Shown in pieces: positions 17,123 through 24,102 of a stretch of 41,934 nucleotides of DNA. Made by a program: the position numbers and the translations under genes. The DNA is taken from the IMG/VR virus record IMGVR_UViG_3300005326_000076, positions 1 to 41,934 of that record. The stretch is one strand, 5' to 3'. The stretch's first letter is position 1. The number at the start of each line of letters is the position of its first letter. This stretch comes from a virus (Duplodnaviria > Caudoviricetes). Below the pieces are notes generated by a model, which searched no databases, was not told where the DNA came from, and saw only the letters and a list, made by a program, of their open reading frames with translations.

Positions 17123-17251
17123 ATGCAACGCGCAGAAGTACTAGCGCTCCGTGATAAGTGGGAGCACAACGAAATAACGTCATGCGATGTATGGGATTAT
17201 GTCAACCGTGGCTATATTACGCGGCGCGAGGCGCTCTGGATTCTGCGCTGA
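17123..17251 (+). CDS. XkdX-like small protein (42 aa)
   Basis: Translated by eye: MQRAEVLALRDKWEHNEITSCDVWDYVNRGYITRREALWILR. V..G.IT..E motif after tail fibre genes; below the ORF-track cutoff. Confidence 0.55.
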   Translation: MQRAEVLALRDKWEHNEITSCDVWDYVNRGYITRREALWILR

Positions 17252-17252
17252 A

Positions 17253-17281
17253 TTGACACGAACAACAATATGTTGTATAAT
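17253..17281 (+). promoter_or_regulatory. Consensus sigmaA/sigma70 promoter
   Basis: TTGACA-17 nt-TATAAT. The spacer carries an inverted repeat ACAACA-ata-TGTTGT. Confidence 0.85.
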
Positions 17282-17312
17282 CGTTACAGTAAATACAACA
17301 TATGGAGGGCGA

Positions 17313-18614
17313 ATGGATTACAACTGTGTATGGCACGTTGAAGCAGAAAGACTAAAATTTGACGAACATCTAAGTTGGCGAGAAGTTGCGCGAGGCGTTG
17401 AGCAGTATCTTCCAGACATGGACGAAGCAACGCGAATGGAAAAAGTGAGGCGCGTGTTGCGTCGATCACCGAGATACGGACAGATAGAACAGCAGGACTT
17501 CCAGCGTGGAAGTGTAGAGTATAAATCAGACGGTCAGATAGTTTCGGAGAAGTTCATCACTTGTCGTGACGGAATCGACATGACACCTGAATACATCCTG
17601 TTTGCGCATGGACTTGATATTGAAAAGTGGGAAGTCGTTTCGTATAAAAACAATTTCTGGAATAGTCAAGTCAAGGGCGGCGCGAAACAAATCAGCTATC
17701 AATCGAAGTTGACCGCGAAACCGAAATCAGGTAGCGTCACATTCTCGGACTTCGACAGATACCTAAACGCAAAGACCTTTACAAATGACAAGCCGCTCAC
17801 CACGGCGTTGCAATATGATCCGAACGGTGAAACGCTTGAGATTGATCTTCCAGACCTTCACGCGGGGTTGCTTGCGTGGCGAATGGAAACGGGCGGAGAT
17901 TACGATTTGACCATAGCGCGAGATCGGTTTTTCTCCTGCATCAATGACGCAACAGACCGATGCAGTGGCAGAAAGTTTAAGAAGATTCTTTTCGTCACGT
18001 TGGGCGATCTCCTGCACTTCGACAATGACAAGCAGGAAACGACAAAGGGAACTTTCCAACAGGCAGACGGACGCACCGCAAAGATATTTGATTGCGTGTT
18101 GGATATGCTCATCGACGGAATTACGATGCTAGCAAACATCGCGCCCGTTGAAGTGATCTACTTAAGCGGAAACCATGACAGGGTTATGGGCTATGCGCTC
18201 ATGAGAGCGGTTGAAAAGGCGTTCGTCAAAGATGAGAACGTGCAATTCGACACCGCGCCGGATCCGCAGAAGTATCGGCTCGTCGGCGTGACGCTCATCG
18301 GGTTCACGCATGGCGATATGCCAACGAAGAACATGCCGAGTTGGTTGCAGCATCGAGCGCGCAAGGAATACGGCGAGAGCAAGTTTGCCGAGATTCACGC
18401 GGGGCATTTCCATTCGATCAAGACGGTTGAGGCGAAGCGCGATTTCAACCAGACAGATGATGTCGGTGGTATCGTTATTCGGTATCTTCCAACAATCTGC
18501 AACGCTTCATACTGGGAGCATCAACAGGGCTATGTGAGCGGCATGCAATCGGTTATGTCGTTTGTGTGGAGTGAAACGGTAGGCCTGCGCGAAATGTGGT
18601 ACAGTAGTTTATAG
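17313..18614 (+). CDS. Calcineurin-like metallophosphoesterase with N-terminal HTH-like region
   Basis: DLH, LGDLLHFD, GNHD, HGD and GHFH motifs in canonical order. GGAGG RBS before ATG 17313 (ORF track starts at 17187). Confidence 0.85.
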   Translation: MDYNCVWHVEAERLKFDEHLSWREVARGVEQYLPDMDEATRMEKVRRVLRRSPRYGQIEQQDFQRGSVEYKSDGQIVSEKFITCRDGIDMTPEYILFAHGLDIEKWEVVSYKNNFWNSQVKGGAKQISYQSKLTAKPKSGSVTFSDFDRYLNAKTFTNDKPLTTALQYDPNGETLEIDLPDLHAGLLAWRMETGGDYDLTIARDRFFSCINDATDRCSGRKFKKILFVTLGDLLHFDNDKQETTKGTFQQADGRTAKIFDCVLDMLIDGITMLANIAPVEVIYLSGNHDRVMGYALMRAVEKAFVKDENVQFDTAPDPQKYRLVGVTLIGFTHGDMPTKNMPSWLQHRARKEYGESKFAEIHAGHFHSIKTVEAKRDFNQTDDVGGIVIRYLPTICNASYWEHQQGYVSGMQSVMSFVWSETVGLREMWYSSL

Positions 18615-22152: not shown

Positions 22153-22181
22153 TTGCGCACAAACTCTGTGCGTGGTATAAT
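22153..22181 (+). promoter_or_regulatory. Extended -10 sigmaA promoter
   Basis: TTGCGC-17 nt-TATAAT with TG at 22173-22174; overlapped by inverted repeat CGCACA-aactc-TGTGCG. Confidence 0.7.
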
Positions 22182-22865: not shown

Positions 22866-23111
22866 ATGGCGATGACAGCGGCAGACAGGCTTGAACTACA
22901 GAAAGCGTTCGTTACTCTTGACGATTATGTCAACGATAAGAAAAAGATTGATGAACGACTAGATAAGGTCGAGAAGTGCAACGAGGCGAACAACCTCACA
23001 TTAGTTGAGATCAAAACACAACTTAGGCTCGTTCTCGGCGTTCTGGCGGCTGTCGGGCTTGCGGTGTTGAGTCTCGTCGTGAAGCAATTTTGGGGAATAC
23101 CTCTACAGTAG
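22866..23111 (+). CDS. XhlA-like membrane protein (coiled coil plus C-terminal TM)
   Basis: IDERLDKVE coiled coil, then the hydrophobic segment LVLGVLAAVGLAVLSLVV; AGGAG RBS. Confidence 0.6.
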   Translation: MAMTAADRLELQKAFVTLDDYVNDKKKIDERLDKVEKCNEANNLTLVEIKTQLRLVLGVLAAVGLAVLSLVVKQFWGIPLQ

Positions 23112-23114
23112 AAA

Positions 23115-23563
23115 TGTCTCGTGGGCATGAACACGCTAAACTCATGCCAAACCGGAGTAAACCGTGAAAAATCAGGTGTTCCGCTACCGATAAATGCGGG
23201 GCTGTAAAATCAATCCGGTGGCTTACTTGGGACGCTTGTGACCGCAAGCGTTAAATCCGAACAATGCTTGCCGCTAAAAACCATGCGGCATATAAGTGGG
23301 TTTACGGAGAAGATTGTTTCCGCGTCGGAACTAAAACAGCGCATCGCCACTAAGCATGGGCGGTTCGGAGAACAAACACGCTTCGCGATGTGCGGCACAG
23401 AAACATCGCTTAAGAAAACTTGCTCTTTACGAGCGGCGAGATGTTATCTCGCATACCAATACTTGGCGTTTGACAAACGCTCTTTTGCCAGACAGCGACG
23501 CTCGACGCTTTGTATCGAGCAACTATTTCCAGTTTGTCCTGCGTGTTCGTTCGCGACCGTGGG
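23115..23563 (+). ncRNA. Candidate large structured non-coding RNA (~450 nt)
   Basis: More than 12 local and long-range complementary segments forming nested multibranch domains. No credible ORF. Followed by an intrinsic terminator. See findings. Confidence 0.7.
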
Positions 23564-23565
23564 CT

Positions 23566-23597
23566 AGGGCGCATCTTAACGGGTGCGCTCTTTTCTT
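23566..23597 (+). terminator. Intrinsic terminator
   Basis: AGGGCGCATC-ttaacg-GGTGCGCTCT (G-U pairs on the + strand) followed by TTTCTT. Confidence 0.8.
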
Positions 23598-23772
23598 GCA
23601 TTCACGCTCTTTTCGTTCGCGATTAGGGCGTGAAAGTTCGATCTTTGCGGTAAATATTCTAAGTATGGTTATAATTAATGTGTGATTTTAATAACAATCA
23701 CGATAGGGTTTAATATCAAATCCTCTTGATACTATTCCTAAAAAATAATTCTCAAAAACTTGCAAAAAAGTA

Positions 23773-23801
23773 TTGACATGCGCGCATTGCGGTATTATAC
23801 T
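23773..23801 (+). promoter_or_regulatory. Early sigmaA promoter
   Basis: TTGACA-17 nt-TATACT with A-tract UP-like region upstream; palindrome ATGCGCGCAT at 23778-23787. Confidence 0.8.
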
Positions 23802-24048: not shown

Positions 24049-24102
24049 CTAGCACACGCGCCGCTCCCGTCCGGCAAAAGGCGGGAAGAAAGAGAGGATC
24101 AC

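Follow-up and report, generated by a model that had tools for sequence, protein, structure and literature searches.

A swappable cassette of small RNA pseudoknots in a phage genome as a likely mimic of several type III antitoxins

The insert that lies between an 81-aa ORF and an intrinsic terminator in a 41,934-base virus record (the whole stretch of DNA analysed, hereafter the window; estimated completeness 85%) is mostly a string of about seven small pseudoknot units rather than one ornate RNA. We consider it likely that this swappable cassette would serve as a multi-specific antidote, keeping host ToxN and CptN ribonucleases inactive during infection. Two of its units (Units 2 and 5, Table 1) very probably derive from or mimic type III antitoxins, and by sequence at least two units, probably three, appear to be type III antitoxin-like: one ToxI, one divergent CptI and one weaker, canonical CptI. 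[quoted passage not shown]

The terminase, portal, head, tail, lysis-like and replication genes of the window all lie on the + strand, and ARAGORN found no tRNA or tmRNA genes over the window. Within the tail region, a 475-aa nuclease/phosphoesterase-like ORF (PHROG 704) occupies 17187-18614. The promoter recognised by eye upstream of the holin-like gene was left out by the promoter scan because its -35 element has just three of six matches; elements like it stand at the equivalent place in three of four sister loci (L011, L013 and L014; not L012). Transcription from this candidate would take in the holin-like gene, a pair of small ORFs and the RNA cassette. Relatives of the holin-like protein were found in Clostridia genomes, which suggests a clostridial host for the phage.

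On the far side of the slot, the ORF 3' of the terminator had no PHROG match. The terminator is followed (23600-23740) by a conserved motif of ~35 nt, common to sister phages, and by an AT-rich stretch that is absent in L002 and L003 and holds a second promoter-like element near 23646-23675; a strong promoter then stands at 23773-23801. Further along, a GC-rich hairpin motif at 24050-24095, 5' of an early gene, is conserved in sister phages, occurs at very high depth in wastewater contigs, and is possibly a repeated regulatory element.

Table 1 Features of the variable slot and its surroundings (positions in the window).
Feature	Positions	Strand	Description
Candidate sigma-A-type promoter	22153..22181	+	-35-like hexamer, 17-nt spacer, extended -10; by eye
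Holin-like ORF, 131 aa	22206..22601	+	PHROG 36209 holin, E 4.2e-5
81-aa ORF	22866..23111	+	Stop codon (23111) is the left border of the variable slot
Unit 1	23112..23148	+	H-type pseudoknot, core 23120-23148; descriptor score 29, the highest
Unit 2, ToxI-like antitoxin repeat	23166..23207	+	Pseudoknot core 23175-23202
Hairpin	23231..23252	+	No family match; stretch ending at 23250 shared with an X4 contig
Unit 3, CptI-like repeat, weaker assignment	23263..23308	+	Pseudoknot core 23270-23303
Unit 4	23316..23342	+	Small H-type pseudoknot, A-rich loop; descriptor score 21
Unit 5, divergent CptI-type repeat (Fusobacteriales-1-like)	23372..23416	+	Pseudoknot core 23379-23409
Unit 6	23436..23469	+	Possible H-type pseudoknot, G-U-rich second stem; descriptor score 24
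Unit 7	23495..23520	+	H-type pseudoknot, 3-bp plus 6-bp stems, loop not A-rich; by eye
Intrinsic terminator	23566..23599 (scan: 23566-23591)	+	Right border of the slot; kept in sisters whatever the slot contents

We counted the units with a descriptor of an H-type pseudoknot with an A-rich loop, which was written after seeing the sequence. It found six pseudoknots in the insert, compared with a mean of 1.0 and a maximum of 3 in 60 shuffles and a maximum of 3-4 in 180 genome windows, and it recovered 36 of 42 CptI, 11 of 18 ToxI and 1 of 6 TenpI arrays; Unit 7 was missed by it. The units are mutually unlike, and the ToxI and CptI models each match one place. Units 1, 4, 6 and 7 matched none of the families tested (ToxI, CptI, TenpI, AbiF). 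Unit 1, with no match to the ToxI and CptI models, has an A-rich leader resembling CptI leaders, and a loose contig end in X17 reads by eye as a variant of it in which stem 2 has changed in a compensatory way. A resemblance between Unit 1 and the 5' half of pistol ribozymes found no support in Rfam and was dropped.

The first-pass annotation had read the same region as a single large, ornate non-coding RNA, and much of what it listed is present in the DNA. All 16 helix pairs tested were found where it had placed them, CTAAA recurs three times (23136, 23274 and 23331), mostly at the start of an A-rich loop, the helix list includes a possible 5'-3' closing helix (23118/23563) containing three G-U pairs, and the terminator was found on the + strand. 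Folding was better than in shuffles (z = -3.10 including the terminator, a level reached by none of 100 shuffles), and no Rfam family reached its gathering score in the region. With the terminator removed, the + strand gave folding z values of -2.3 to -2.9 (40 shuffles each). A non-coding, structured + strand region was upheld, but minimum free energy alone does not settle the strand of the 3' half, which folds no worse on the - strand (z -3.9).

The helices divided according to their span. Local Watson-Crick helices of at least 6 bp were enriched (9 vs a mean of 3.2, which 0 of 100 shuffles reach), whereas long-range helices stood at the chance level, both at 7 bp or longer (5 vs a mean of 4.6; 50 of 100 shuffles as many) and at 6 bp or longer (22 vs 17.8; 17 of 100 as many). 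The stems that had been described as hairpins exist, but several are one stem of an H-type pseudoknot. Both arms of a crossing pair (23157/23299) are likewise present, but there is a rival pairing, of 23299-23303 with the loop 23278-23282, as in CptI. The nested set 23256/23363 with 23264/23352 may be real, one contig keeping both arms around a different interior. For the helix 23370/23541 the arms are present, but a relative carries 23371-23406 near the terminator without the far arm.

Searches with the region as one RNA gave few matches. The ROOL, GOLLD, OLE and raiA covariance models did not match it up to E 10, and a BLAST search of phage and plasmid collections with the insert returned nothing. 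Among 399 and 241 Clostridia-related genomes there were 1 and 7 weak matches, respectively, which were short, in unrelated contexts and taken as chance. Three search patterns derived from the single-RNA model gave 0, 27 and 3 matches, all chance; the pattern with 27 matches was a poor test, its gap range of 100-130 excluding the window's own spacing of 134.

We then compared the slot between sister phages, identified via flanking proteins. The slot is empty in L002, and five sisters (L003, L007, L009, L010 and L013) carry inserts of 170-240 nt unrelated to that of the window. The L007 insert had no match in phages, and Rfam returned nothing useful on the sister inserts. The ToxI and CptI models matched neither the inserts of five sister phages nor five whole phage records, so the slot may not be specific to antitoxins.

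Contigs of all four sequencing runs compared share pieces of the insert separately (23108-23180, 23155-23212, 23251-23275 with 23334-23370, 23371-23406, and 23492-23525). X3 and X4 contigs carry Unit 1 as a separate piece, the stretch 23328-23370, which overlaps Unit 4, is common to contigs in X4 and X23, and 23492-23525 (Unit 7) recurs in other contexts in X3 and X23. One contig joins 23174 almost directly to the terminator, and another does likewise with 23406. In an X23 contig, the flanks 23251-23275 and 23334-23370 are kept around 93 different letters; Unit 3 lies within a possible clamp (23256-23369), and the stretch around it (23251-23370) may be part of a larger scaffold. The shared pieces are short, at 80% likeness and with 25-30 letters on the short side, and single joints may be those of other organisms. 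As far as these contigs reveal, the sharing pattern is one of exchangeable modules. Such piecewise swapping speaks against a coding role for the ORFs that overlap the insert (109 aa at 23238 and 23356). X23 consists of RNA-library contigs, in which short pieces of the insert are covered, in assembled form only, so they are uninformative on expression.

Several contig ends and sister inserts carry elements of their own. A loose end in X17, 5' of the terminator, contains a 13-nt stretch that by eye is typical of canonical CptI repeats. In an X23 contig, the loose end before 23251 has 30 letters that read as the reverse complement of the 5' half of canonical CptI, in a comparison made by eye against a primer printed in the available part of PMC4627078. 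This end may be an inverted unit or an artefact. A structured module of ~60 nt is common to three sisters (L003:2248-2310, L007:1462-1524 and L009:2738-2797), directly 3' of the stop codon of the relative of the 81-aa ORF, and had no match in Rfam. We take the L009 copy to resemble an HDV-like ribozyme core, a region in which the L003 and L007 copies differ; a loose end in X3, before 23120, presumably resembles an HDV-like 3' end. Two H-type pseudoknots with A-rich loops, one of them differing between L007 and L009 by a paired change, occupy L007:1525-1592 and L009:2801-2870.

Unit 5 shares 42 of 45 nucleotides with a repeat in L079. A pattern taken from 23382-23409 of the window led to 17 viral loci, comprising seven three-repeat arrays (L065, L069, L070, L075, L077, L078 and L079), seven single copies in large phage contigs (L063, L064, L067, L071, L072, L074 and L076, around positions 790-840) and three apparent chance matches. 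The array loci have a common layout, in which a promoter-like sequence is followed by three 42-nt repeats, a terminator and an ORF of ~162 aa that is CptN-like. The ORFs scanned, at four of the seven arrays, all match NF047359 (E 4e-15 to 3e-13) below its 90-bit cut-off, which indicates a divergent CptN relative, and one array ORF matches the CptN crystal structure PDB 4RMO (E 1.7e-9). Across 21 repeats, pairing of the pseudoknot is kept at 99%, and 5 of its 10 base pairs have changed on both sides. Unit 5 combines identity to toxin-adjacent repeats with this covarying pseudoknot. At all six single-copy loci scanned, tRNA genes lie near the single repeat.

The divergent repeat is also related to an Rfam motif. 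RF02920 (Fusobacteriales-1) aligned to 23332-23452 with 27.6 bits (E 0.26), below its gathering score of 52.1; it is the middle repeat of the three-repeat consensus to which Unit 5 aligns, whereas the window has one repeat only. On this likeness, Fusobacteriales-1 may be a CptI-type antitoxin array.

Because the search with Unit 5 had started from the window, loci for the ToxI and CptI models were fetched by toxin alone and the repeats then extracted, both models being built without the window. The ToxI model comprises 20 toxin-adjacent repeats (4 of 24 candidates dropped) and the CptI model 28 (2 of 30 dropped), the grounds for dropping being that a candidate was out of phase, not a repeat, or a near-duplicate. 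In 81,746 bases, the ToxI model had a single match, which was Unit 2 on the sense strand (29.1 bits, E 5.8e-5), a score higher than those of all seven other matches listed in nine held-out ToxN loci (best 26.9). Over 43 nt, Unit 2 is 74% identical to a repeat that precedes ToxN in L096, and none of 100 shuffles and none of 180 genome windows scored as well in the ToxI alignment. Unit 2 has both the ToxI sequence and the pseudoknot, with both stems formable.

Unit 3 was the top match of the CptI model, on the sense strand, with 19.9 bits (E 0.09; by nhmmer, E 0.011), at the low end of the 15-45 bits of genuine held-out CptI matches. In its alignment, 1 of 100 shuffles and 6 of 180 genome windows were as good. 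From these scores, its assignment as a canonical CptI repeat is plausible but not secure. Just 5' of the Unit 6 core, 23410-23446 has a marginal likeness to TenpI, with 2 of 100 shuffles and 19 of 180 genome windows as good. Profiles of TenpI (8 units; 6 of 12 candidates dropped and 2 added from L120) and AbiF (6 units), both small samples, had no match in the insert, and three further TenpN loci compared by eye added nothing.

We searched for the toxins that would accompany such antitoxins. Models of CptN, ToxN and TenpN, which do match in bacterial genomes, found nothing in the window's record and three sister records (four of four, one of them 97% complete); for the window, this absence covers the assembled 85% of the genome, and the missing part could hold a toxin gene. 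The CptN-like protein of L079, which finds the control record G641, had no match in the window's record or in three of three large phages with single repeats. Directly after the terminator there is no toxin, and the insert has no tandem near-identical repeats. In all the native loci fetched, the repeats have a promoter of their own and immediately precede the toxin, and whole CptIN loci are carried by prophages. A bacterial genome (G200:C1, about 1,761,800-1,763,000; L089 and L120) has TenpIN and CptIN back to back, showing that more than one type III system can coexist in a host.

According to the available parts of PMC5086642, PMC4627078, PMC13682666 and PMC13728456, the toxins of type III systems are ribonucleases: they cleave their own repeat RNA within A-rich stretches, the pseudoknots so produced keep them inhibited, and ToxN is freed when a phage shuts off host transcription. 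In the portions of PMC4627078, PMC5086642 and PMC13682666 at hand, one repeat can suffice and pairing is toxin-specific. A phage counterpart is described in the accessible text of Blower et al. 2012 (PMC3475682), where the pseudo-ToxI of Pectobacterium phage TE suppresses abortive infection by ToxIN.

In the explanation that we favour, host polymerase would make a ~1.4-kb RNA from the candidate promoter to the terminator, with the cassette as its 3' tail. As the host's own unstable antitoxins decay, its toxins would be freed, cleave the phage RNA in its A-rich linkers and remain complexed with the pseudoknots so released, as happens in native ToxIN and CptIN. Because toxin-antitoxin pairing is specific, the phage would collect a single unit for each type of toxin, not several copies of the same one, and mixed units would cover different toxins in different hosts. 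Units would be gained from toxin-antitoxin loci of hosts or prophages, and recombination in the interval from the conserved ORF end to the terminator would exchange them. Two observations in the literature speak against the proposal: in the available part of PMC3475682, the single pseudo-ToxI of TE failed to rescue an over-expressed toxin and escape needed 4.5-5.5 repeats, while each unit of the window's cassette is present singly; and a 2016 review, in the portion available (PMC5086642), gives two tested CptIN systems as having no anti-phage activity. More tentatively, with the odds in our judgement lying slightly against it, clostridial phages in general might keep such exchangeable single antitoxin pseudoknots as a 'key ring' against several unrelated ribonuclease toxins, in which the unmatched units, here and in the sisters, would be antitoxins or decoys of undescribed RNA-controlled defences.

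Four other explanations were weighed against this one. Units captured from toxin-antitoxin loci could serve the phage transcript itself, as toxin processing sites or as a shield of its 3' end against exonucleases, and not as toxin inhibitors; the cassette does occupy a 3' untranslated position before the terminator, four units have no antitoxin match and the pseudoknots of the sister slots match neither model. A generic shield, however, needs no sequence-specific likeness to two or three antitoxin families, and the L002 slot is empty, so that we regard this reading as unlikely. The single ornate RNA of the ROOL or GOLLD kind, or else a functional scaffold of 120 nt, with the antitoxin likeness being partly coincidence, draws on the folding z of -3.1, on one X23 contig in which the arms 23256/23363 and 23264/23352 are retained and enclose a different interior, and on a 12-bp helix with one mismatch that can close 23370-23552. 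The first-pass claim of such an RNA nevertheless found no support: the ROOL, GOLLD, OLE and raiA models are silent to E 10, no full-length homolog was found, the long-range helices are at chance and the pieces travel separately in relatives, while an identity of 42 of 45 to a toxin-adjacent repeat is not coincidence. We judge this explanation quite improbable.

Equally small, and a shade below that, is the weight we give to each of the two remaining readings. If the units were non-functional recombination relics of toxin-antitoxin loci in a tolerant intergenic slot, the high variability of the slot, its being empty at times and the single occurrence of units would be accommodated; but the stems of Units 2 and 5 are intact, stem 2 of Unit 5 showing a paired change, every match is in sense orientation, units come up again in other samples and singly in unrelated large phages, and no remnants of toxins or promoters were seen between them. 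It is also hard to credit that the cassette is the antitoxin half of a system whose toxins lie elsewhere, in the missing part of the phage or on a co-resident element, and which maintains a defence or addiction module. A genome 85% complete and the whole CptIN loci of prophages allow for it, whereas in all loci fetched native repeats are always directly upstream of a toxin with their own promoter, and the three toxin families are absent in four of four related records, one 97% complete.

The multi-family antidote would, if true, mean that phages collect RNA antidotes as they do anti-CRISPR genes. It would also provide indirect evidence for CptIN acting against phages, suggest a function (type III antitoxin) for the orphan Rfam motif Fusobacteriales-1, and turn the unmatched units into baits for new RNA-controlled defences; under the wider 'key ring' reading, the solitary repeats in the tRNA regions of large phages would make RNA antitoxin mimicry a common natural counter-defence. 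In the literature searched, which left subscription papers mostly outside its scope, we found no account of a natural multi-family phage array of antitoxin RNAs, and one worked example of RNA mimicry of a type III antitoxin, that of phage TE, with one repeat type, laboratory-expanded, in the part of the source available.

Among known systems, ROOL and GOLLD are similar as large, pseudoknot-rich non-coding regions in Firmicute-type phages, with lengths of about 580 nt (ROOL) and over 800 nt (GOLLD) compared with about 450 nt for the window's insert, according to the available parts of PMC5737381 and PMC12286853. Unlike them, the insert has no Rfam match, no tRNA in its genome and no sign of a conserved multi-junction fold. 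The Racr or Cracr RNA anti-CRISPRs are solitary CRISPR repeat mimics in phages. They are alike in being a phage copy of a host defence RNA without its protein partner, but they target CRISPR-Cas, whereas the proposed target here is type III toxins, and no CRISPR repeat was identified. Native toxI and cptI arrays share with the cassette H-type pseudoknots of 35-50 nt with A-rich loops and flanks, followed by an intrinsic terminator, in the portions of PMC4627078 and PMC5086642 at hand; the cassette differs from them in having no tandem repeats, no promoter directly upstream and no toxin after the terminator. The pseudo-ToxI of phage TE is, in the accessible text of PMC3475682, likewise intergenic, toxin-less and antitoxin-repeat-like in a phage, with RNA mimicry proposed against ToxN, and consists of 1.5 copies of one repeat that expanded to 4.5-5.5 under selection. 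Mimic function is demonstrated for TE, whereas the cassette of the window, a putative mimic, is natural and brings together single units of different families in an exchangeable slot.
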